This document shows positions 5,670 through 44,731 of a DNA stretch of 64,000 nucleotides, piece by piece (positions within the stretch are counted from its first letter, which is position 1; the number at the start of each line of letters is the position of its first letter). The stretch comes from an uncultured Acidobacteriota bacterium (GTDB lineage: Bacteria > Acidobacteriota > Blastocatellia > RBC074), in NCBI GenBank assembly GCA_963796275.1, contig CAWCKY010000001.1, positions 544,001-608,000 on the forward strand, given 5' to 3'. A model generated the notes under the pieces. That model made no database searches. It saw only the letters and a list, made by a program, of their open reading frames with translations, and had not been told where the DNA came from. A program made the position numbers and the translations under genes.

Positions 5670-7340
<1,671 letters not shown>

Positions 7341-7374
7341 AACCGCTGGTTGCGGATTGAAAGCTGATAGTTAT

Positions 7375-7419
7375 AGGGTCAAAGTTGGTAACAGAAGCCA
7401 GCTTTGACCCTTTGTTTTT
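7375..7419 (+). terminator. Rho-independent terminator of the GWxTD gene
   Basis: AGGGTCAAAGTTGG (7375-7388) / CCAGCTTTGACCCT (7398-7411) stem followed by TTGTTTTT. Confidence 0.8.
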
Positions 7420-7475
7420 GGGGTTAGGCGGAGCGGCGGCGGAAACTTTTCGGGCACCTCATTCAATACACCCTG

Positions 7476-7914
7476 CCAGTAACCCTCAAGTTGTACATCC
7501 AAGTTCAAGCGGAGCCTTTGGTGTCCGTAATACTTGTAATCGCTTTGGCGGTCATTTCCTTAATTCGCAGTTTCCAGGGTCGGGAAGGTTCGTGGTCTGT
7601 CCATCTCCATCTTTCAGGCGCGTCAGCCATATCACAATATCCCATCGTCTTTGCGGATGACTGACTGCCAGGTACTGATAATCAAGGTATCAGTGAAGTA
7701 GAACGAAGTGCCAAAGCGGTCCCTGGAGATACTCTGCTGGCGAACTCGAGTATTGCTTACCTGAGTATTGCAATCCCCCTAACGGCATGCCGTTGGGGGA
7801 ATTCGAACTTAATTTTTTATGCGCCCTAAACCTTTTAAAGGGGAGTTTGCCAGCCGGAATCCCGGGAAGGCCACTCCATAGGCTCCGCTTGAATTTTGGG
7901 TATATTGAGACTGG
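7476..7914 (+). ncRNA. Candidate ~440-nt structured non-coding RNA (or structured MITE-like element), family unrecognised
   Basis: Ends pair through a perfect 14-bp helix (7504-7517/7880-7893) extended to 7476/7914. At least seven internal helices, one apparently crossing. Most non-canonical pairs are G-U on the + strand. No credible ORF. Confidence 0.5.
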
Positions 7915-7916
7915 AT

Positions 7917-7958
7917 AAAAAAAAAGAACCACGCGAATGTTCGGCTTTCGCGTGGTTC
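7917..7958 (-). terminator. Rho-independent terminator of ftsH
   Basis: GAACCACGCGAA (7926-7937) / TTCGCGTGGTTC (7947-7958); A9 tract at 7917-7925 is a U-tract on the - strand. Confidence 0.85.
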
Positions 7959-7982
7959 GATTTTTACTTTCTGTTTTTCAGA

Positions 7983-9893
7983 TCAGGCGGGTGCCGGATT
8001 GCTTCCGGTAATCGGCGGCAGGATCGGTTTCAGTACCGGCTCCTTGTCCGCTGGCTTACCCGGGTGCGTCTTCGGCGCCGGGCTGTCGTCATCCAACGGC
8101 AATCCCGCTACCACACGGCGGATCTGAACCGAATCGAGCGTCTCGTTAGCCAATAAAGCTTGGGCCAACCGGTCGAGCGCATCCTTGTGGTCCAGGATGA
8201 TCTGGCGCGCTCGCTCATATTGCTCCATGACGATTCGCTTGACCTCTTGATCTATCTTGATCGCCGTGTCTTCGCTGTAATCCTGATGCTGAGCGATCTC
8301 GCGCCCGAGGAATATTTGTTCTTCCTTCTTGCCGAAGGTCAGCGGTCCAAGATTTGACATTCCGAACTCACATACCATACGGCGCGAAAGTTCGGTCGCG
8401 CGTTCGATGTCGTTCGAAGCGCCCGTCGTAATCTTGCCGAGGAAAATCTCTTCGGCTAAACGACCTCCCATAAGGATCGCGATCGAACCTTCTATGTATT
8501 CGCGCGTATGTGTGTAGCGATCGCCTTCCGGCAATTGCTGAGTAAGGCCGAGCGCCATACCGCGCGGGATGATCGTCACTTTGTGAACCGGGTCGGCGTT
8601 CGGAACTTTGAGGCCGACAATCGTGTGCCCAGCTTCGTGATATGCCGTAGTTTGCTTTTCTTCGTTGGACATGACGGCGGATTTGCGCTCCGATCCCATC
8701 AGTACTTTGTCTTTGGCCCATTCAAAGTCGTGCATAGCCACGACCTTCTTGTTATAGCGGGCGGCGTTGAGCGCAGCTTCATTGACGAGATTCGCCAGAT
8801 CGGCGCCTGTGAAACCGGGCGTACCACGTGCAATGACCGAGATGTCGACGTCTTCGCCGAGCGGTATCTTGCGCGTGTGAACGGCCAGAATCCCTTCCCG
8901 ACCCTTGACATCTGGGCGATTGACGATGACGCGACGGTCGAAACGTCCCGGACGCAGAAGCGCCGGATCGAGCACATCGGGACGATTGGTCGAGGCGATG
9001 AGGATGACGCCATCGTTCGATTCAAATCCGTCCATCTCAACCAGCAACTGGTTGAGCGTCTGTTCACGCTCGTCGTGGCCGCCGCCGAGCCCGGCGCCGC
9101 GATGGCGTCCTACCGCATCAATTTCGTCGATGAAGATGATGCAGGGAGCGTTTTTCTTGCCTTGTTCGAAAAGATCGCGGACGCGGCTTGCGCCTACTCC
9201 AACAAACATCTCGACGAAATCCGAACCGGATATCGAGAAGAATGGAACGTTCGCTTCACCTGCGATCGCTCGCGCGAGCAGTGTTTTTCCGGTGCCCGGC
9301 GGGCCCATCATAAGCACGCCTTTGGGAATGCGGCCGCCGAGTTTCTGAAATTTCTGAGGCTCCTTGAGGAATTCGATGATCTCCTGTAGCTCCTCTTTCG
9401 CTTCTTCAACCCCGGCGACATCTTTGAACGTCACCCGCTTCTGCTGATTGGTGAGGAGTTTTGCGCGGCTCTTCCCGAATGAGAGCGCTTTGTTGCCGCC
9501 CGATTGCATCTGGCGCATCATGAATATCCAGAATGCAATGATCAGGATAAACGGCGCGTACATCACGAGCATATTTGCCCACAAACCGCTGCTCGATGAA
9601 GGATCGAATTTGACATCGATCTTATTCTGTTTCATCAAACTCGCGAGATCGCGGGCGACATATTCATTTCCGAGCTTGCTCGTGTATGTTCCCTGACTGG
9701 TTAATTTTCCGTGGATTTTTTCACGTTCGATAATAGCGGTGGCTATCTGACCACTCTCGATCTTCTCAACCAGATTAGAATAGGAAAGCTCCGTTGGTTG
9801 AGTGGCACTTGGATTGTGGAAATATCGATACAGCAGGATCGCTCCACCGATAATCACTACCCAGAATATCACTTGTCTGATTGTCGAGTTCAA
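7983..9893 (-). CDS. ftsH: ATP-dependent zinc metalloprotease FtsH
   Basis: Two N-terminal TMs, [16 protein letters not shown], second region of homology [24 protein letters not shown] zinc motif. Confidence 0.98.
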
Positions 9894-10134: not shown

Positions 10135-11532
10135 CTACAGTTTCTCAGCGGTAACCAGGGCACACAAAGATGTACGTACATCATTCACGTCAACGGCAAA
10201 TTCCTTGGCAACCGGCAACCCCGGCGACCAGACGATTTGCCCCTCATCGGTTACGAGCACCGGATAATTTTCACGCTCCGAAATAGGGATTTTCCGTTTG
10301 ATCATCAATGTTTTAAGCTTTGTTTTACGGCTCCTCCCTTCAGGCAAGTATTCATCGCCGGGCGTTCTGACCCTTAAAATTAAGCTATCCAACTCCGCAC
10401 ATTCTCGAATAAGCGCTTGAAAATGCTCGCTTTTTCCTTCCATCCGGGAATTACGACATGGAAGCTGTCGCTGGATTGAAAATTTGAATCTCCCGAAAAT
10501 AACGGCATTCTCTTGACCTAAGCTGAGAGGGTTCAGGGGGCCTGACGGTGTCACCTTCAGGCGGGCAAGAGTGATGTGATTAAATTCTCGCCGGGCGATC
10601 CAGCCCGATGGCAGATGGGCGCTCTGGCCGCTTTGATTTCGTGTGATCAGGTCTTCCAGCGCTTTGAGATGCGAGAACTCGATACGTTGTAAACCTCCCC
10701 GCACCTCACGAAGCCACATGCGTAAAATTGATCGTCGAATCGCGGGATGGGCATCGCGCAGAGGTCCGAGCTCGAGTTCCGGACCGTTATGAACAACAGC
10801 GTAGATTTGTGAAGAAAGCTGCTTTAGATAGTCTTGATCGTCTGTTACCAGCTCGGCGGTGCGAGCGAGCGTTTCATTGAACCGGTTATTGAAGCTCCGC
10901 AGCAGCGGCAACAATTCGTGGCGAACACGGTTGCGTGTCAAGCTGGCGAGCATGTTCGAGCTATCGTTCCGAAAGGCGATGTCGTAATGCTTGCAATGTT
11001 CGATGACTTCCGCCCGCGTGATGTCGAGCATGGGCCGGATCAATTTCACTGTCTCACTGATCTGTCTAACTTGATGTATGCCGCGCAGACCGTCTGTGCC
11101 GGCGCCTCTGAGCAGACGCATAACGATCGTTTCAACCTGATCGTCCTGTGTGTGCGCGGTCAATACCATTTCGCTATTCCGGTTCTGGGCGATCCGCCGC
11201 AAAAAATCGTAACGCAATCGTCTGGCTGCTGCTTCGAGGTTTTCTTTTCCCGCGCGCGCATTTCCTGCGACATCGATCCGCTCAACAACGCAATACAATT
11301 TCGCCCGGGCAGCAAGTTCGATCACGAATTTCTCATCCGCATCCGATTCTTTGCCGCGCAAACTGTGATTGAGATGGGCCACGAGCAGGGCCTCCCGATT
11401 GTGAAATCGGACCAATGCATCGAGCAGCGCGGTCGAGTCTGCGCCACCGGAGACGGCAACCACCAACTTCGCCTCCTCTCCGATTTCCAATCGTCGCAGT
11501 TCAGCCCTCAATTTTTTCTCGAGTGTTGTCAT
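10135..11532 (-). CDS. tilS: tRNA(Ile)-lysidine synthetase
   Basis: PP-loop VAVSGGADS, HLNHSLR, EAAARRLRY, AHTQDDQVET, RPML, DSSN, RNRVRH; upstream of ftsH. Confidence 0.95.
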   Translation of the reverse strand: MTTLEKKLRAELRRLEIGEEAKLVVAVSGGADSTALLDALVRFHNREALLVAHLNHSLRGKESDADEKFVIELAARAKLYCVVERIDVAGNARAGKENLEAAARRLRYDFLRRIAQNRNSEMVLTAHTQDDQVETIVMRLLRGAGTDGLRGIHQVRQISETVKLIRPMLDITRAEVIEHCKHYDIAFRNDSSNMLASLTRNRVRHELLPLLRSFNNRFNETLARTAELVTDDQDYLKQLSSQIYAVVHNGPELELGPLRDAHPAIRRSILRMWLREVRGGLQRIEFSHLKALEDLITRNQSGQSAHLPSGWIARREFNHITLARLKVTPSGPLNPLSLGQENAVIFGRFKFSIQRQLPCRNSRMEGKSEHFQALIRECAELDSLILRVRTPGDEYLPEGRSRKTKLKTLMIKRKIPISERENYPVLVTDEGQIVWSPGLPVAKEFAVDVNDVRTSLCALVTAEKL

Positions 11533-12080: not shown

Positions 12081-12767
12081 TCAGGTCTGAGCCGAACGGG
12101 AGGATTCCATGATTGATTCGCTTTCCGCACCGACCCTGGCATAAAACGATGCATCGCAGGAACGACAAATAAAAGCTTTGTGATTTGTGAGAGCAAAGAC
12201 TACGCGTTCCAATCCACTCCTTTGCCGTCGTCTCACCCAATTTGATCCGCATTCCGGGCAGTTGGCGTTTGATTTTTGATTCTCCCTCAACACATTGATG
12301 CCATTCGCCTCTATCACACCTTTAACTTCGTGAAGCTTGGTAATCTCAGAGCGCAAACCCGATCGAATCGGTTCAACCGCGCCATTTCCGTTCTGATGTT
12401 GAGGTTCGTTTATGGGCGGGACAGACGGGACACCGATAAGATCGACTTTTATCTGCTGCTCCTGATTTGCCTCGATGCTGAGAGATAAACGCGATGCCGC
12501 CAACTCCAGCCTTATTTGCTCTCTACTGGGATCAGTCAGGTTCTGTTTATTCTGATTGAGCTGATGGCTGACAGTATGCGAGATATCAAGTTTGCGCCCG
12601 TTCTCCCTTGAAGCGCGTGTTCGAGGTGAGGCCGGCGAGAATGCGCGGAATTGGCGGTTGCAGTAATCGCAGAGCAACGCTCTGACGCCGATCGCACGTA
12701 GGACGAGCGGCGCTGGCTTGTAGTCATTACGAATACGCGAACTTCCACAAGATGGACAGACAACCAT
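12081..12767 (-). CDS. Hypothetical protein with two terminal zinc-ribbon-like domains
   Basis: CPSCGS...CDYC at the N-terminus and CPECGS...CRSC at the C-terminus; low-complexity linker; SD AAGGAG. Confidence 0.75.
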   Translation of the reverse strand: MVVCPSCGSSRIRNDYKPAPLVLRAIGVRALLCDYCNRQFRAFSPASPRTRASRENGRKLDISHTVSHQLNQNKQNLTDPSREQIRLELAASRLSLSIEANQEQQIKVDLIGVPSVPPINEPQHQNGNGAVEPIRSGLRSEITKLHEVKGVIEANGINVLRENQKSNANCPECGSNWVRRRQRSGLERVVFALTNHKAFICRSCDASFYARVGAESESIMESSRSAQT

Positions 12768-12954
12768 ATCTCGATCTCCTTATTATCCACAGTATTGTGG
12801 GGGTTAACTGAGGAGTCTGTTTAATTGTCTGAACCAAGATTGAGGAGGGCAATCTTGATGTTCAAATAGCGGGGGATCCCTGTTAGTTATTGCTTGTATT
12901 AACTTTTTGCGAATCCGTACTTTATCATTTTCGTGCCCCTTGGGGAAGGGGGTT

Positions 12955-14856
<1,902 letters not shown>

Positions 14857-18112: not shown

Positions 18113-18227
18113 CAGAAGACAGTAGTCAGAAGCCAGGAGACAGAGGGTGGCAGTCAGAATTCAGAAGAAATGACAATTTTCTCGACTCTTTAAACCGCAT
18201 CTCTAGTCTTCTGACCTCTGACTGCCA
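18113..18227. repeat. CAGAAGA-type heptamer array with inverted copy
   Basis: CAGAAGA CAGTAGT CAGAAGC CAGGAGA CAGAGGG...; 18148-18168 pairs with 18207-18227 (19/21). Confidence 0.65.
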
Positions 18228-19534
18228 TTTTCTATCTCTGCTTGGAAATGTTTCGGCAATCCCTGCCAGCAATCGAAATAATCCTTCTGCAATGTAGGTA
18301 ACTCCATCGCGAATTTCGTTGGCCGGATGACGAGGCGCGTTTCAAACATAAACGCCAGATTTTTTTCGTAACGTTCCGGCTTGAGATCAGCCTCCCTGGC
18401 CTTTGCGAATGCCGCGGCATCTGGCCCATGCGCCGACATGCAATTATGCAGACTTGCGCCACCGGGAACAAAACCCTCAGCCTTCGCGTCGTATTGCCCG
18501 AAGATCAAACCCATAAATTCGCTCATCACGTTCCGATGAAAAAAAGGTGGGCGGAAGGTATGCTCCGCTACCATCCAGCGCGGCGGGAATATGACGAAAT
18601 CGACATTGGCCGTGCCCGGTGTATCCGAGATGGAGGTTAGAACCGTGAAGATCGATGGATCGGCATGATCGAAGCTCACCGTGTTGATTGTATTGAAATT
18701 TGCCAGGTCGTATTTGTACGGCGCATAGTTTCCGTGCCAGGCGACAACGTCGAGTGGTGAATGACCGATAACCGCTTCCCAAAGATTGCCCTGGAATTTG
18801 GCGATGATGCGCAGATCGCCTTCTCGTTCGTCATAAGCGGCAACCGGTGTCAGGAAATCCCTGGGATTCGCCAACCCATTTGCGCCGATAATTCCAAGTT
18901 CTGGCAGATTGAAATGTGCGCCATAGTTTTCGCACACGTAGCCGCGGGCTTCGCCATCGGGCAGGTTGATTTGGAATTTCAGCCCGCGTTGCAAAACACA
19001 AATTTCACCCGGCGCGACTTCCAATATTCCCAGCTCGGTATGGATCGATAAACGGCCGCGCTCGGGCACTATGAGCAATTCACCATCAGCATTATAGAAG
19101 AAGCGGTCGCGCATCGGCGCATTAGCCGCGTAGATGTGGATTCCCGCGCCGGTGGACATGCCAACATCGCCGTTGGCGCCCATCGTCACGAGACCATCGA
19201 TGAAGTCGGTGGGTTTTTGCGGCAGCGGCAGCGGATCCCACCGCAGCTGATTGGGCGTCGTCGATGGATTCTCATCGAAAGGCGCGGTGCGGATGAGGCC
19301 GTTTGCGATGCGCTTGAACGGTTTGTGCACGACCGATGGGCGAATGCGGTACAGCCATGAGCGCCGGTTTATCCCGCGCGGCGCAGTGAAAGGCGACCCG
19401 CTGAACTGCTCCGCGTAGAGACCGAGGGGCGGCTTCTGCGGAGAGTTTTGCCCTATCGGCAGAGCCCCCGCACGCGCCTCCGTTGCGAAATCGTTGCCGA
19501 AGCCCGATTGGTATGGAAGTTTGGCTGATGACAT
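18203..19534 (-). CDS. hmgA: Homogentisate 1,2-dioxygenase
   Basis: [71 protein letters not shown]. Confidence 0.97.
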
Positions 19535-20756: not shown

Positions 20757-21614
20757 TCAAAAACTATCGATAAAATCTCGAGTCACTTCCTTTAAATAGC
20801 TGTAAGACGGTATGACAAACAATACCGGCTGCATATCCGAGTAATCGTAGTCGGTGTTTATCACCTCCTTCAGGTCGAATTTGCGCCGGTCGACTTTATC
20901 GCTGAACGCATATTCGAGTTCGCTGTAGGAGGACAGCAGCCCCGCTCCGAAAGCTTTGATTCCGGCTCCTTCTTCGACCAGACCGAATTCGACGGTGAAC
21001 CAGTACAGACGTCCCAATTGCCTCAACTGCTCGTCGCTGGCGACGACGGCGCCCTTGCCGATGAATTGCGAAAAATCAGCGAAATCGGGGTTGGTGAAAT
21101 TTGGGATATGGCCGATGATCTCGTGAACGATATCGGGTTCAGGCGTGTAATCGGGCCGCGAATGATGGCGCAAGTACTGAGTGCAGAGCATCGTCCGCTT
21201 CCCGAGCCAGCTCAGGAATGCCCGGGTCTCGACCAGCCCCTCGATTGGTGCGAGCCGAAAGTTCGAGACCTCGCGCAGCTTCGGGTCGAGATCACGAAGT
21301 TGTGGAATGAGATTGCGGCTGATCCCGAGTTTGCGCTTAGATTCGAGATAGAGAGAACAGGCGCGACGCTCCTGCGTTTCTCCGAGCTGATCATAAACGT
21401 GTCTCCAGATCGCCGTCTCTTCCGCCGTATACTCTACGTTGGGAATGATGTGATCGGGGTCCTCGCGGTAACACTTGGCCAATTCCGCGATGAAGTTGCG
21501 GCGCGATCGATACTCCGCGTCCTGGGCTCCGGGATGGTCGATCGGGAGCATGCTGATCTCCTCAAACCCGATGTCACTGTTCAAAAATTCTTCAGTCGTG
21601 ATCATTACTTTCAT
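20757..21614 (-). CDS. phhA: Phenylalanine 4-monooxygenase (biopterin-dependent aromatic amino-acid hydroxylase)
   Basis: [47 protein letters not shown]; start re-assigned after SD AGGGAG. Confidence 0.93.
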
Positions 21615-33797: not shown

Positions 33798-33807
33798 ACC
33801 ACCTTCA

Positions 33808-34271
33808 TTAAAATCAACCTTAAAATCAACCTTAGTTGAATTATCCGCGGTTCAGCGGCATAGGAAATTTGATGCATCGCGGGGTAATCCATCATCTCCG
33901 GAAAAGTGGAACCACCTCGTTGGCTCCGGGAGAATTGATGCGAAAAGGCATCAGATAAGCTATACATTTTGTCGTGGGAAGTCAATGGGTTGCACGTCTC
34001 GCCCGTAAGAACAATTCATTTTCCATTTTCCATTTTTCCCTTTCGAATCAAGTACATTATCAATGGTCGAAGAAAGTGAAAATTGAGATTGGAAATGTTT
34101 TTATCGAAAGGTTATGAGTACAACTAGTATTGACTACCCCGTCATATTAATGATTTACTTGAACCGTAGTAAAATATAAATACTCTCTTGAGTATTTCTT
34201 CTTGAGTATTTCTTAGTGATACTTACCCTGTGCCCCCATCTTCAAAACGAAGTCGAATTTAGAAGTCGAAT
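33808..34271. repeat. Three separate short tandem duplications in a divergent AT-rich intergenic region
   Basis: TTAAAATCAACC x2 (33808-33834), TCTTGAGTATTTCT x2 (34186-34214), GAAGTCGAAT x2 at 13-bp spacing (34249-34271). Confidence 0.75.
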
Positions 34272-34419
34272 ATATTGAAATCAGAAGATAGCTTAAGTAT
34301 CGTTGCTATATATATCTCCTTGAATATGTCGACCTGTCCCAGGACGGCGATTCTTCCGTCAAGGTTTGGTAGATTCTTCGATTCCATGTTTCACCCATAA
34401 CTTCTAAGGAGCTGCACCG

Positions 34420-35949
34420 ATGCCCAGAGACAAAGCCAAAAAGATCGAGCCAGAACCCAACAATTTCTCTTCAATAATTCCTATCGAAGATGACAAGAAT
34501 GCGGGTAAGAGCAACAACAAGGTCCTCCCGCTAGGATCCTCCAGGTATGGCTTCAACGTGCTGGATCAGAATGCTAATCGGGAAGGGCGTGGGGAAACGG
34601 GGGAGGCTCCGCCCGAACAGGGTGTGGAAGCGATGTCAGAGATCAAATCACGTGTTGAGGCGGTGCTTTCGCGCATCAAAGCCGAGACTTCCGAGATGGG
34701 ACTCAACGAAGGGCCGGATTATAAGACGGCGGAATTAGTGAAGCCCGCGGAAGTCCGGGTAGAGGCCAGAGTGGATTATCCGCCAGAGCATCAAGGCTCG
34801 GTCACCGGCTCTTTAAGCAACACGGGTCCCCTGGGTACGGGATCCTTAGGCACAGGGCCGTTACTCAAAAGCCTTACGAATGAACTGGAGCGCCGGCGGT
34901 CAGAACTTTTCGCGCAGGTGCGCATCGCGGAAGCCCGAGCGCAGGAGATCGAGGAAAGGTATAGGGAAACGGAGCGCAGGCTCGAACAGGAACTTGCTAT
35001 GCGCCGTACGGCCGAGCAGCGACTCAGGGAATTGGAGGATGAATACCTCCATCGCTTGACGGCCGCGGAAGAAGAGGAATTGAAGCGGCTCGACGCCGAA
35101 TCGGCGCGTGAAAGGGCCGAAGCCCAACTGCGCGAATTTGAAAAACGCGTCAAAGATGCCGAAGACACGATGTTGGTGGAAACCGAAGCGCACGTGCAGA
35201 GCGAGAAGGCGATGAGGGAAGCAGAGGCGAGGGCTGAAGCCGCCTCGCTCGCAGTCGCCGATGCCGAGCGCCGTCGGTCCGAAGCGGAAGCCAGGGCACA
35301 ATCGGCGGAGGATAATGCGCGAGCAATTGAAGGCCTGATAGATGAAGCGGAATCGATCGCGAATGCTGCCAGGGATAGATACAAGAACGCCGAAACCAGG
35401 ATGCAGCAGGAAGTTCAGCTGAGGGGCGAGGCTGAGGAGAAGCTTAAGACGTTAGAAAATGAGCTGAGTTATTATCTGGAAGTTGACTGGAGCAAGGTCG
35501 AGCCCAGATCAGACGACGCAGTGAGCGATCAGGCTGCGACGCACCTCAAATCACAAGTTGAATCGGAGCAGAAGGTGCGTGCGGCCGCCGAGGAAGCTCG
35601 CACGGCTGCCGAAGTCAGGGTTCGCCAGCTGGAAGAAGAGCTCTTCAAGTATGAGGAGAAATACCGCCAGGTGGAGGAGAAGCATCGCCAGGCTGAAGCT
35701 GGTTTCAAGAAGATATTGCGAAAGCAGGAATCGGAATTACGCTCTATGTCGGAGCAGGTCACCCGCGCGAATTCCACAACCACCGATCTTACTCTGGTTA
35801 AATCGCCCGGGAAAAATGACACGCATATAACTATCGCGGCAATGACTCGGAATGCGAAGCTCAAGCTGGTGGGTTACGGCGTCGTAATCTCATTTCTAAT
35901 ATATGGATTAAGCTACCTCGCCTACCAGATAATCATGCAGTTGACATAG
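34420..35949 (+). CDS. Long coiled-coil protein with C-terminal transmembrane anchor
   Basis: ~290 aa E/A/R-rich heptad region; TGSL/TGPL repeats; C-terminal LVGYGVVISFLIYGLSYLAY; SD AGGAG. Confidence 0.85.
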   Translation: MPRDKAKKIEPEPNNFSSIIPIEDDKNAGKSNNKVLPLGSSRYGFNVLDQNANREGRGETGEAPPEQGVEAMSEIKSRVEAVLSRIKAETSEMGLNEGPDYKTAELVKPAEVRVEARVDYPPEHQGSVTGSLSNTGPLGTGSLGTGPLLKSLTNELERRRSELFAQVRIAEARAQEIEERYRETERRLEQELAMRRTAEQRLRELEDEYLHRLTAAEEEELKRLDAESARERAEAQLREFEKRVKDAEDTMLVETEAHVQSEKAMREAEARAEAASLAVADAERRRSEAEARAQSAEDNARAIEGLIDEAESIANAARDRYKNAETRMQQEVQLRGEAEEKLKTLENELSYYLEVDWSKVEPRSDDAVSDQAATHLKSQVESEQKVRAAAEEARTAAEVRVRQLEEELFKYEEKYRQVEEKHRQAEAGFKKILRKQESELRSMSEQVTRANSTTTDLTLVKSPGKNDTHITIAAMTRNAKLKLVGYGVVISFLIYGLSYLAYQIIMQLT

Positions 35950-41101: not shown

Positions 41102-43183
41102 ATGGCCCCGTTCGATCCATTCGCCTTCTTATTTTTACCGCCAACCTCGGCGCCCGCATCTCTTTCTCCGTTCAATATCCTTGAGCTCGTAGGATTCGCA
41201 ACCGGCGCTTCTCTCTATCTATATCTTTGCTGGATGCTCTTTCAGCGATATGGCATTCGCCGCGTGGAGCGCTCCCTACTGGCTCTGGGTTTGAGCATCG
41301 GTTTGTGGCATCTGGGAAACTTTGCCGAATCGATTTACCTCCTGCTGATCGGCGCCAGAAGCGGGTTATGGTGGTTGAAATCGGCCAATGTCGTCTCCTA
41401 TGTCGCGCTCGCTTTTTTGCCTCCCACCCTCGCGCATGCTCATTTCAGGGTGTGGAAATGGTTCGACAAACGCGTTCCCACCCAGTTATTCAGGACACTG
41501 ATCATACTGGGATATTTGCCGCTCTTGATTCTCCCCTGGGTCGTGGCCAGGCTCTGGGATGATCCATATGAAGAGCCGATCCGAAAACTGTCTTTTCTTT
41601 TACTTCCATTTATCTTCTGGATCATCTTTATCTTCTTTGAATGCGCCGTGATCGATTGGCGGCTGGCTGCTAAATTGCAATCCGAGCGCGAGCGTAGATT
41701 TTTCGAAGTGTTCGGCGCTTCGCTCGTAATAATCGGCGGCCTGTTCCTGCTCACTTACGTCTTCGGTGCGAGGAACTGGGAGGTGCTCGGAAAATATCTC
41801 GATTTGATCGCGCGGCTCTCATCGATCGCGCCCGCGACAATAGTCGCTTATTACATCTATCGATATCGCTATCTGGAACTCGTTATCCGGCAGAGCTTCG
41901 TCTATGCGATTCTGGCGGCGATCATCATGATGGTCTACATCAACGGGATCCGCCGGTTGAGCATACTGCTCGAGGGGAATTACGGCGTACGCGCTGATGT
42001 CATCGAAGCTTTGCTGATCCTGGTCGTCATGTTTCTTGCGGGACCGCTGCGGCGCTTGACTGAGGGTTATCTGCAGCGGCTCTTCGCGCGCGAGGTGGGG
42101 CTGTATCGCGAACTTGTACCACAGGTCGGCCGTGCTGCTGCGAGCTATGGTGAGCTTGATCGTTTCGTCCAATTCGCCGAGAGAAGATTATCCGATGCAC
42201 TGGAACTGGTTGACGTGCGCATTATTCCCACCAATCTGGCAAGGAATGAGACCGCAGATGTGTGCCGCATAGCCGAGGAGCGGCAGCTAGCCGAGATCGA
42301 AGACAGATCGTTGCTCGGCCGTCTGGATGCGATTGCCGGATATTCGCTCTGGCGCGAAGGTCGCATAGTCGGTCTTATGATAGTAAAAGGCGAACCGCAA
42401 AGTTTGACTCCTGAAAAGCGGGAGGTGCTTGCGGTCCTGGCCGGACACATAGCCGTGGCCATAGAGAACTGTCAGCTTCTCGAAGAGAAAGTAAAACTGG
42501 AGCGCGAGCTGGCAGAGCGCGAACGTCTGGCATCGCTCGGCCAGATGGCGGCTACCGTCGCACACGAGATCAAAAACCCGCTCAGCGCGATCAAATCGAT
42601 CGCCCAGGTGATGCGCGAAGATGAAGGCGTGAGCCGCGAATATGGCCATGATCTGGACCTGATCACAGGTGAAGTTGACCGCCTCAATCGCACCGTATCG
42701 CAACTTCTCAGTTTTTCCCGTCCTGCCGCCGTTGCCTCTACCTCCGCTAGTCTCCGCGAAGTGGTTGAGAGCGTTCTCGCCATCACCCGCAACGAGGCCG
42801 AAGAGCGCAATATCAGAGTAACCATAAATCTTACGGCCGATCCGGACTTCGACGGCGAGACAGCCGCAGTGATCAAAGAGATCCTTCTCAATCTGGTCTT
42901 CAATGCTGCTCAGGCGATAAATCGCGAAGGCGAGGTAAACATTGAAAGCGAATTCAATGGCAGTAACCAATTGCATGTCTCCGTCACCGACGATGGAATC
43001 GGAATTCCGCTCTCTCTGCAAGAGAAAATATTTGAACCATTCTTTACGACCAAGCAGCGCGGTACAGGCCTGGGCCTGGCAATCGTCGCGAGGCGCACAA
43101 ACGAAATTAATGGGACAATCGATCTGAGCAGCCCGGTGCTTGAAGGACACGGCACGAGGTTTGATCTGAATTTCCCGGTATGA
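41102..43183 (+). CDS. Membrane sensor histidine kinase (multi-TM N-terminus, GAF-like, HisKA, HATPase)
   Basis: AHEIKNPL, NLVFNAAQA, DDGIGI, FEPFFTTK, GTGLGL. Confidence 0.95.
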   Translation: MAPFDPFAFLFLPPTSAPASLSPFNILELVGFATGASLYLYLCWMLFQRYGIRRVERSLLALGLSIGLWHLGNFAESIYLLLIGARSGLWWLKSANVVSYVALAFLPPTLAHAHFRVWKWFDKRVPTQLFRTLIILGYLPLLILPWVVARLWDDPYEEPIRKLSFLLLPFIFWIIFIFFECAVIDWRLAAKLQSERERRFFEVFGASLVIIGGLFLLTYVFGARNWEVLGKYLDLIARLSSIAPATIVAYYIYRYRYLELVIRQSFVYAILAAIIMMVYINGIRRLSILLEGNYGVRADVIEALLILVVMFLAGPLRRLTEGYLQRLFAREVGLYRELVPQVGRAAASYGELDRFVQFAERRLSDALELVDVRIIPTNLARNETADVCRIAEERQLAEIEDRSLLGRLDAIAGYSLWREGRIVGLMIVKGEPQSLTPEKREVLAVLAGHIAVAIENCQLLEEKVKLERELAERERLASLGQMAATVAHEIKNPLSAIKSIAQVMREDEGVSREYGHDLDLITGEVDRLNRTVSQLLSFSRPAAVASTSASLREVVESVLAITRNEAEERNIRVTINLTADPDFDGETAAVIKEILLNLVFNAAQAINREGEVNIESEFNGSNQLHVSVTDDGIGIPLSLQEKIFEPFFTTKQRGTGLGLAIVARRTNEINGTIDLSSPVLEGHGTRFDLNFPV

Positions 43184-43185
43184 AT

Positions 43186-43245
43186 AGTTTTCAGTTTTCA
43201 GTTGCTGAATTAGACCGTCCGACTGAAAACTGAAAACTGAAAACT
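43186..43245. repeat. CTGAAAA heptamer inverted repeat
   Basis: AGTTTTCAGTTTTCAGTT / ACTGAAAACTGAAAACTGAAAACT. Confidence 0.7.
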
Positions 43246-43270
43246 GTTGCGAAAGTGAGCTAGAGGAATT

Positions 43271-44731
43271 ATGGCGGATCTGAAAATCCTGATCGTTGAC
43301 GATGAAGAGGCAGCGCGATACGGAATGGTCCGCGCGCTCAAAAATTACGCGGTCCTTGAAGCGGCGAGCGTGGAAGAGGCGCGAAGAGAGGTCACCCGAG
43401 TTCGCCCGGCCTTGATCCTGCTGGACATCAATTTGCCCGGAGCGAGCGGGCTTGAATACCTGCGAGAGCTTGCGGCCACCATCGATGCGCCCCCCGTCGT
43501 AATGGTCACGGCGCACGGTTCAGAGCGCACAGCCGTCGAAGCTATCAAGGCGGGAGCTTACGATTACCTGGCAAAGCCATTTGAGGTCGATGAGTTGAGG
43601 CTCGTGGTAAAGAACGCGCTCGAAGCATCCAAACTCCGGCACGAAAACCAAAAGCTTCGAGCCGAACTCAAATCTGTGCGCGGGGCGGGCGAACTGCTGG
43701 GCGCCACCGAACGGATGCGGCGGATATACGATCTGATTGCCAAAGTCGCGATGACCGATGTGACGGTTTTGATTGCCGGAGAATCGGGCACCGGGAAAGA
43801 ACTCGTCGCGCGCGCCATCCACGACGAGAGCGCTCACCGACGCAACGGGGATTTCATCGCGATGAACTGTGCCGCATTACCCACGGAACTTATCGAGTCT
43901 GAGCTCTTCGGCCACGAAAAGGGCGCATTCACAGGGGCCGCGGGACAGCGGAAGGGGAAGTTTGAGCTGGCTCAAGGCGGCACGATCTTCCTCGATGAAA
44001 TCGGCGATATGAGCCTCAATACGCAAGCCAAGTTACTTCGGGTGTTGGAGGAGCGGAGAATCGAACGTCTCGGAGGTTCGCATTCGATCCCGGTCGACGT
44101 GCGCATCATCAGCGCCACCAACCGGGATTTGGCTTCGTCAGTGGCATCCGAAAAATTCCGCGCAGATCTTTTCTATCGCCTGCGCGTCGTAGAAATAAAT
44201 CTGCCACCCTTGCGCGAACGGAGTGAGGATATTCCGCTGCTCGCCGAAAATTTTCTCGCGATCTATGCCGGTAAGTACCGACTCAGTTGCGTAGAAGTCA
44301 GCGCGGAAGCGATGAAGATGCTCGTCCGGTACGAGTGGCCAGGCAATGTTCGCGAACTCCGCAATGTCATCGAACGAAGCGCGGTACTCTGCGACGGAAA
44401 GTCGCTGCGCGCGGATGACCTGCCGGAAGAGATAAGAGCAAACCGGCAAGCGGAAAGGTCTTCCGATAATTTCTGCCGCGCTTTCCCAACCGCCGCGAAT
44501 GAGGCGATAGAGTCCATGCAAATTCCATATCTCGCCGATTTTCGCGAGGCCCGGCGGGAATTTGAGCGCGCATATATCGAACGCGTATTGAAAGACACGG
44601 GGGGAAATGTGACGCGCGCTGCCGAAAGAGTCGGGATGCACCGCCAGAGCCTGCAGCAAAAACTGAAAGACCTTGGCCTCACGCGCCGCTACGTGGTGAA
44701 CGAAGAGGTGCAGGAATCGGATGACGAGTGA
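43271..44731 (+). CDS. Sigma-54-dependent response regulator (NtrC/AtoC family)
   Basis: REC domain (VDD, LLDINLP, KPF), [28 protein letters not shown], Fis-type HTH. Confidence 0.96.

Follow-up and report, generated by a model that had tools for sequence, protein, structure and literature searches.

Introduction

The largest gene-free gap of the 64-kb stretch of DNA analysed here (referred to throughout as the window) lies at positions 7341-7982 and contains an element of about 440 nt (7476-7914) whose two ends can pair with one another. The question raised by this locus is what such an element might be: a functional RNA, a piece of mobile or invertible DNA, or a sequence that folds by accident. 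The initial annotation had read it as a candidate for a large, multi-helix non-coding RNA or ribozyme-like class, with a structured MITE or an invertible segment as alternatives. Our analysis indicates that it is most probably something other than a large non-coding RNA, and we tentatively favour, with rather less than even confidence, a reading in which the element is the mRNA of a small hydrophobic peptide that its own fold would make untranslatable, an architecture resembling that of the type I toxin mRNAs hok and aapA. The claim is limited to a likeness in how such an mRNA would work, and membership of the class is not established, because no homologue, promoter or antisense RNA was found and the frame has a low codon score.

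The model for such a mechanism is aapA3 of Helicobacter pylori. According to the part of the aapA3 study available to us, the full-length mRNA is inert, a 3' anti-site being paired with the ribosome-binding site through a long-distance interaction that joins the 5' end to the 3' end; transient local hairpins hide the ribosome site during transcription, one of them by means of a UCC-type anti-site within the coding sequence; and activation of the mRNA occurs by trimming at its 3' end (PMC6733600). For a ribosome site occluded over a long distance, and for a metastable hairpin at the 5' end, the same part of the study cites hok (PMC6733600).

Type I toxin families are described, in the available portion of a survey of their distribution, as each confined to a single phylum with the exception of SymE, the examples coming from Proteobacteria and Firmicutes; that portion mentions Acidobacteria for type II toxins only and reports no type I system from them (PMC5367252). 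The database T1TAdb covers 24 families and 218 species, and the word Acidobacteria is absent from its main text, so far as that text was available (PMC8594479).

Genomic setting of the element

The gap is bounded on its left by a GWxTD-domain gene (5670-7340, + strand) and on its right by ftsH (7983-9893, - strand), which is downstream of tilS (10135-11532, - strand), all three having been assigned by Pfam. The intrinsic terminator of the GWxTD-domain gene (7375-7419, + strand), which consists of a hairpin at 7375-7411 with a 15-pair stem and the tail TTGTTTTTGG, forms the left boundary of the element. On the right, a hairpin at 7926-7958 lies between a run of nine A and a run of five T (7917-7965 in all), and with these flanking runs (A9 and T5) it can terminate transcription in either direction, serving ftsH on the - strand and plausibly an element RNA on the + strand. 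The terminator tool gave no listing for this hairpin, an omission that probably reflects its 9-nt loop, which is longer than the 8-nt limit of the tool.

Upstream of 7476 no promoter of the sigma-70 type was found, and motifs of the sigma-54 and ECF type in the same region were rejected after inspection by eye. Other open frames of the gap (91 aa on the + strand, 80 aa on the - strand, and others) had no family match and were rejected because their starts fall within the terminator hairpins.

Relatives of the locus were collected by an FtsH search of genome contigs, which gave 80 loci with 10-kb flanks. The nearest of these, from Blastocatellia and Pyrinomonadaceae, have FtsH proteins of only 73-78% identity (the best, 78%, being from Blastocatellia), and the lineage is thus poorly sampled. 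The order tilS-ftsH is kept in most of the 80 loci. A GWxTD gene near ftsH was seen in none of them, so that synteny yields no orthologous spacer, and folP follows ftsH in 7 of the 12 relatives checked and not in the window, which places the element where gene order differs. The idea that the gap holds the relic of a gene was addressed by tblastn with 11 genes found downstream of ftsH in relatives, and none had a match in the window.

The end-to-end helix and the fold of the element

The core of the long-range helix (7504-7517 with 7880-7893) is perfectly paired at 14 of 14 positions, and the end repeat to which it belongs is 24 nt long and 88% complementary. In the minimum-energy fold this helix extends by way of bulges to 7476/7914, comprises about 40 pairs and closes the whole of 7476-7914. 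Its 5' arm (7476-7524, + strand) holds the motif GGAG (7511-7514) and the candidate start codons TTG 7518 and GTG 7521, and its 3' arm (7873-7914, + strand) holds the anti-ribosome-binding motif CUCC (7883-7886), which pairs with GGAG. The predicted energy of the duplex between the arms is -36.9 kcal/mol for the core and up to -49.3 kcal/mol. The end repeat is unique in the 64-kb window by the measure of arms of 20 nt or longer, with a complementarity of 85% or better and a spacing above 100 nt (14 pairs listed), and by our own arithmetic about 8e-4 repeats of 14/14 would be expected in 640 nt.

When 7470-7920 was folded as the + strand, its energy was -165.9 kcal/mol compared with -133.7 +/- 5.5 kcal/mol for dinucleotide shuffles (z -5.92), with none of 100 shuffles as good, and the - strand gave a weaker excess (z -3.43). 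The element therefore folds better than shuffles on both strands, as the initial annotation had asked to be checked, and because the excess is stronger on the + than on the - strand, a structured RNA of the + strand, closed by the pairing of its ends, is likely. The end pairing and all of the helices that had been listed for the element are present at or within 1-2 nt of the positions given, including the 14/14 core and the outer pairings CTCAA/TTGAG and CCAGT/ACTGG; so too is a 9-bp complementarity between 7571-7579 and 7721-7729, which is a candidate pseudoknot pairing.

The signal is not evenly distributed. With the end helix left out, the interior (7525-7872) gave z -2.35 on the + strand and -1.90 on the - strand, and its 5' half (7525-7717) was at chance level (z -0.60, 48 of 200 shuffles being as good). 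The 3' domain (7716-7874, 159 nt) gave z -4.72 on the + strand, with 0 of 200 shuffles as good, and -2.71 on the - strand; it is folded as a stem of about 27 pairs (7718-7747/7843-7872) around three hairpins, one of which is the G+C-rich hairpin 7774-7800. A scan in 100-nt windows detected local structure above chance only at the two terminators and near this hairpin. Several of the inner helices listed earlier are mutually exclusive and at odds with the minimum-energy fold, and since the interior folds largely like shuffles, many of those short helices are what 440 nt would yield by chance. Thus, from the picture of a multi-helix element, the end helix and the 3' domain stand as significant and the 5' half does not, and these two are the only significant structure of the element.

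A sceptical view would hold that the gap is filled by functionless leftover sequence, in which a chance inverted repeat and a G+C-rich hairpin make the fold signal. Consistent with this, conservation went undetected in the 80 loci, in plasmid and phage collections and in protein searches, no promoter was found and much of the interior does not exceed chance. However, the rarity expected of the 14/14 repeat, the failure of all 100 shuffles to fold as well, the significance of the 3' domain by itself and the coincidence with an open reading frame and ribosome site described below all speak against it, and we consider an absence of function quite unlikely.

A candidate small open reading frame starting within the helix arm

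A candidate open reading frame on the + strand (7521-7664) has 47 codons from GTG 7521 to the stop codon TGA (7662-7664), with alternative starts in the same frame at TTG 7491 (57 codons) and TTG 7518. At its N-terminus the peptide would have the hydrophobic stretch VSVILVIALAVISLI, with a polar tail after it. Its mean Kyte-Doolittle hydropathy reaches 3.21 over 15 residues; of the 682 frames from stop to stop with lengths of 40-90 aa that the 64-kb window offers for comparison, only 2 have values of at least 2.9. For a membrane helix, a hydrophobic stretch of about 15-17 residues is short. With 0.064 per codon, the frame has a codon score that is low among genes of the window (in-frame chunks score 0.233 +/- 0.09, and 4% of chunks are equally low) and close to the 0.061 of an adjacent frame judged meaningless.

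The motif GGAG at 7511-7514 sits 6 nt ahead of GTG 7521. Motifs of this type are also found 8 nt before the starts of ftsH and of the GWxTD-domain gene, and they precede 13 of 45 genes of the window when the start of the longest frame is taken. Both GGAG and the start codon fall within the 5' arm of the end helix, where the partner of GGAG is CUCC 7883-7886, and the predicted pairing probability of GGAG is 1.00 whenever the 3' arm is part of the RNA. There is, in addition, a weak local hairpin at 7509-7528 (7509-7516/7520-7528, + strand; -8.3 kcal/mol), in which GGAG is paired with UCC of codon 2 and GTG is covered. In all eight 5' fragments folded, with ends from 7560 to 7879, GGAG was predicted to lie in this local hairpin with a pairing probability of 0.80-0.91. 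A hierarchy of energies is thus predicted, from -8.3 kcal/mol for the local hairpin to between -36.9 and -49.3 kcal/mol for the long-range duplex, and the ribosome-binding site would, as a thermodynamic prediction, be sequestered by a long-distance 5'-3' interaction of the kind found in type I mRNAs.

How often such a combination occurs was estimated by a scan of the window and the 80 related loci (1.49 Mb, both strands) for a Shine-Dalgarno word and start codon ahead of a short frame with a hydrophobic stretch, the measure being the longest run of perfect complementarity of the ribosome site to the 450 nt past the stop codon. Under strict criteria 4 starts passed, 2 of them the adjacent starts of the target itself, and a complement of at least 10 bp was present in the target only; under relaxed criteria 67 starts passed, and the 65 others had at most 9 bp compared with 14 bp in the target, figures that are optimistic, because the features of the frame were noticed and the thresholds set with the target in view, and that are flattered by a base composition of the 80 loci which differs from that of the window. 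The helices and their energies, the open frame, its hydrophobicity and the rarity of the combination are all direct outcomes of computation, and the coincidence of GGAG, a start codon and a hydrophobic frame within a helix arm seems unlikely to be accidental.

A large ribozyme-like RNA with many helices is not borne out by these results, given that the 5' half folds like shuffles, that it carries a 47-codon frame and that the ribosome site of this frame lies in the 14-bp helix. A more restricted version, a structured non-coding RNA from a class not yet described, which would function through the end helix and the 159-nt 3' domain and have its open frame by accident, deserves more careful consideration. 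It would account for the strong excess of folding on the + strand, both of the whole and of the 3' domain (z -5.92 and -4.72), for the lack of a match to any Rfam family and for the existence of an independent unit between two terminators, and the mediocre codon score of the frame and the lack of a homologue for it also speak in its favour. It leaves the fold of the 5' 190 nt, which is like that of shuffles, and the local windows without structure above chance as awkward facts; GGAG, a start and a hydrophobic frame seldom come together in a helix arm (more than 9 bp in 0 of 65 comparable frames), homologues that might have provided covariation were not found, and nor was a promoter. We think such an RNA unlikely, although not negligibly so. 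It is in our estimate distinctly improbable that the end helix and the 3' domain (7716-7874) represent a novel class of structured RNA with a regulatory role in Blastocatellia-like Acidobacteriota, whether purely non-coding or with a dual function together with the peptide.

Searches for families, copies and relatives

The initial annotation had recognised no hallmark of a known RNA class, and the searches agree with it. Rfam 15, which includes RNase P, tmRNA, SRP, 6S, introns, riboswitches, ROOL, GOLLD, OLE, HEARO and raiA, gave no match in the window at the gathering threshold, and a permissive Rfam search of 7300-8050 gave nothing credible, the best being P15, which scored 23.6 bits where its threshold is 70. 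ARAGORN detected neither a tRNA nor a tmRNA. No antitoxin RNA family was matched in Rfam and no antisense RNA gene was identified; on the - strand there is a weak promoter-like match, TTTAAA-16-AAAAAT, with a start near 7805, and no - strand terminator was found within the element.

The peptide likewise stands alone. A word-index search gave no candidate, and a full HMMER search of 1.84 billion representatives gave 4 matches to long repeat proteins, which were judged artefacts, as each was matched in 1 to 12 short stretches. There was no match in the Atlas, no family in Pfam or NCBIfam at E values up to 10 (one meaningless match), and nothing better than E 2.3 by tblastn against the 80 loci. 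The peptide was assigned to none of the described type I toxin families (Hok, Ldr, TisB, Fst, Ibs, AapA and others).

At the level of DNA, blastn of 7420-7966 against the 64-kb window returned self-matches only, and the arm motif, with up to 3 mismatches allowed, was found in the window at the two arms only, which makes the element single-copy in 64 kb. Plasmid and phage collections contained no match to the element. In the 80 loci, blastn gave one 30-nt match at E 0.18, nhmmer gave none, the arm motif was absent, and a covariance model of the 3' domain (R1) matched only itself. The non-coding stretches past ftsH in four of these loci (L003, L031, L029 and L002) contain unrelated palindromes only, and Rfam searches of seven loci found solely an Acido-Lenti-1 RNA, which lies elsewhere. 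Enzymes that move or invert DNA were also sought, and neither the genes flanking the element nor 50 further ORFs of the window, all ordinary chromosomal genes, yielded a recombinase, integrase or transposase.

These results bear directly on whether the inverted ends belong to DNA and not to RNA. Bacterial MITEs of the Correia and ERIC type are short intergenic non-coding DNAs with terminal inverted repeats, which form long hairpins once transcribed, and the element is similarly intergenic with inverted ends. It could therefore be a MITE, or the relic of one, with terminal inverted repeats at 7476-7524 and 7873-7914 and an RNA fold that is a by-product. Such an origin would be in keeping with its size of about 400-440 bp, with terminal inverted repeats that are imperfect and 24 to about 45 bp long, and with its place in the window's largest intergenic gap, where gene order departs from that of relatives. 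Furthermore, GTACAT (7493-7498) and GTATAT (7900-7905) flank the near-perfect core and may be read as a 6-bp duplication (GTAYAT), although this candidate duplication is near-palindromic and is also part of the helix. However, a single copy is visible in 64 kb, with the arm motif at its two arms only, copies are absent from the 80 related loci, plasmids and phages, and no transposase accompanies it. The best pairing is not outermost, perfect pairing being internal and weaker outward, a pattern unlike that of transposon ends, and the fold is strand-asymmetric, with more structure on the + than on the - strand. We regard a mobile origin as doubtful.

Known phase-variable switches have inverted repeats of similar size around a comparable segment, those of the fimS type having repeats of 10-30 bp around 150-400 bp, and the inverted repeats of the element (14-24 bp around some 350 bp) fall within this range. 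Recombination between the 24-bp inverted repeats would flip a segment of 348 bp. Such a switch differs from the element in having a recombinase nearby, an internal promoter and a downstream gene to control: in our case no recombinase was found in the 50 further ORFs or the flanking genes, no promoter-like site lies within the segment, and the segment is placed between the 3' ends of convergent genes with a terminator on each side, so that there is nothing obvious to switch. An invertible segment is thus highly improbable.

A proposed self-locked mRNA and its comparison with known systems

We return to the proposal that the element is the mRNA of a small hydrophobic peptide which is locked by its own fold. 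Transcription, translation and processing of the locus, toxicity of its product and the existence of an antisense RNA are what we infer, and the scheme is conditional throughout. An RNA of the + strand would run from about 7476 to the hairpin 7926-7958 and would comprise, in order, the 5' arm with the ribosome site, the 47-codon frame, the 159-nt 3' domain, the 3' arm, an A-rich linker and the terminator. During its synthesis GGAG and GTG would be held in the weak local hairpin 7509-7528. Once the 3' arm (7873-7914) had been made it would pair with the 5' arm (7476-7524), GGAG and CUCC would be enclosed in the 14-bp helix and the full-length RNA would be inert. Trimming of the 3' end, or unfolding, would then free the ribosome site and allow a 47-residue peptide with a single membrane helix to be made. 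The 159-nt 3' domain may serve to stabilise the RNA, or may be the target of, or the coding site for, an antisense regulator. The contrast between a coding half at z -0.60 and a 3' domain at z -4.72 is the pattern expected of an open reading frame followed by a structured 3' UTR.

The mRNA of hok, a gene of plasmid R1 and of enterobacterial chromosomes, is about 400 nt long, is inert when its 5' and 3' ends are paired, is activated by 3' trimming and encodes a membrane peptide of about 50 residues. The element resembles hok/Sok in the size of its predicted mRNA, in the pairing of its ends and in a candidate small peptide of the membrane type. It differs in that its peptide has no Pfam match, even though the Pfam library includes a Hok family model, in that no Sok-like RNA was found in the Rfam search, in that no overlapping leader frame like mok was seen and in that the frame is at the 5' end and not in the 3' half.

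[quoted passage not shown] It differs from these systems in having no sequence similarity to them and no identified antisense RNA, in belonging to another phylum and in occurring as a single copy in the window. Moreover, the aapA1 RNA is about 250 nt long, whereas the element RNA would be about 440-490 nt, with a much longer 3' UTR (250 nt) that contains a structured domain of its own. Many type I loci are repeated, and the single copy in the window was counted against the proposed lock.

Type I toxin-antitoxin modules, in which a stable mRNA encodes a toxic and usually hydrophobic peptide of less than about 60 aa and a small RNA, antisense or partly complementary, pairs with that mRNA, are difficult to recognise from sequence. 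If our reading is true, this would be the first such module seen in Acidobacteriota, and a lineage of that group which is deeply separate and poorly sampled would have evolved, or retained, a lock of the ribosome site through 5'-3' pairing. The signature of a short hydrophobic frame, a ribosome site and a long-range anti-site could in that case be used in searches for genes that do not depend on homology. If the element is instead non-coding, it would be an orphan structured RNA with a well-defined domain of 159 nt. Either way, a single locus is a lead and not yet a discovery.

Other observations in the window and its relatives

A 7-nt sequence that holds the ribosome motif, GCGGAGC at 7509-7515, recurs 81 nt upstream at 7428-7434, just past the GWxTD terminator. 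In a read-through transcript the upstream copy could compete for the 3' anti-site, and read on the - strand it would be complementary to the ribosome site over a short length; by our own arithmetic a repeat of this 7-mer is near chance (about 0.08). An inverted near-identity of 15/16 nt also links 7573-7588 of the element with 8893-8908 in the coding sequence of ftsH, the two giving similar short peptides, one of which is QGREGSWSVH; as its blastn E value is 1.2 we judged this to be chance.

Elsewhere in the window, a 21-nt inverted repeat (95%) with tandem TTTTCAG units at 43183-43248 separates a histidine-kinase gene (41102-43183) from a sigma-54 activator gene (43271-44731), and may be a terminator or an operator. 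At 18137-18238 a 32-nt inverted repeat (81%) overlaps the start of a homogentisate dioxygenase gene (18203-19534, - strand) and runs into the adjacent spacer. The second-largest gene-free gap of the window (33798-34419, 622 nt) is upstream of an ORF at 34420-35949 that has no Pfam match. The ORF at 39973-41010 matches the Pfam family Volactin (PF25216, E 9e-78), which is notable in an Acidobacteriota-like window because Volactin is an actin-like protein described from haloarchaea.

Among the related loci, that of a Blastocatellia relative (L053) carries an Acido-Lenti-1 RNA (RF01687, 45.1 bits) at 21542-21588 on the - strand, about 10 kb from ftsH, which is unrelated to the element. A near relative (L003) has, downstream of ftsH, about 1.2 kb without long ORFs (12547-13728), with palindromes of 19 nt (perfect), 23 nt (91%) and 49 nt (71%) that have no similarity to the element by sequence or by model. 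Finally, five loci (L002, L009, L023, L025 and L077) that are labelled Clostridia, Bifidobacteriaceae, Verrucomicrobiae, Patescibacteria and Bordetella parapertussis encode FtsH proteins 63-75% identical to the Acidobacteriota-type FtsH of the window, and their bins are probably mislabelled or mixed.
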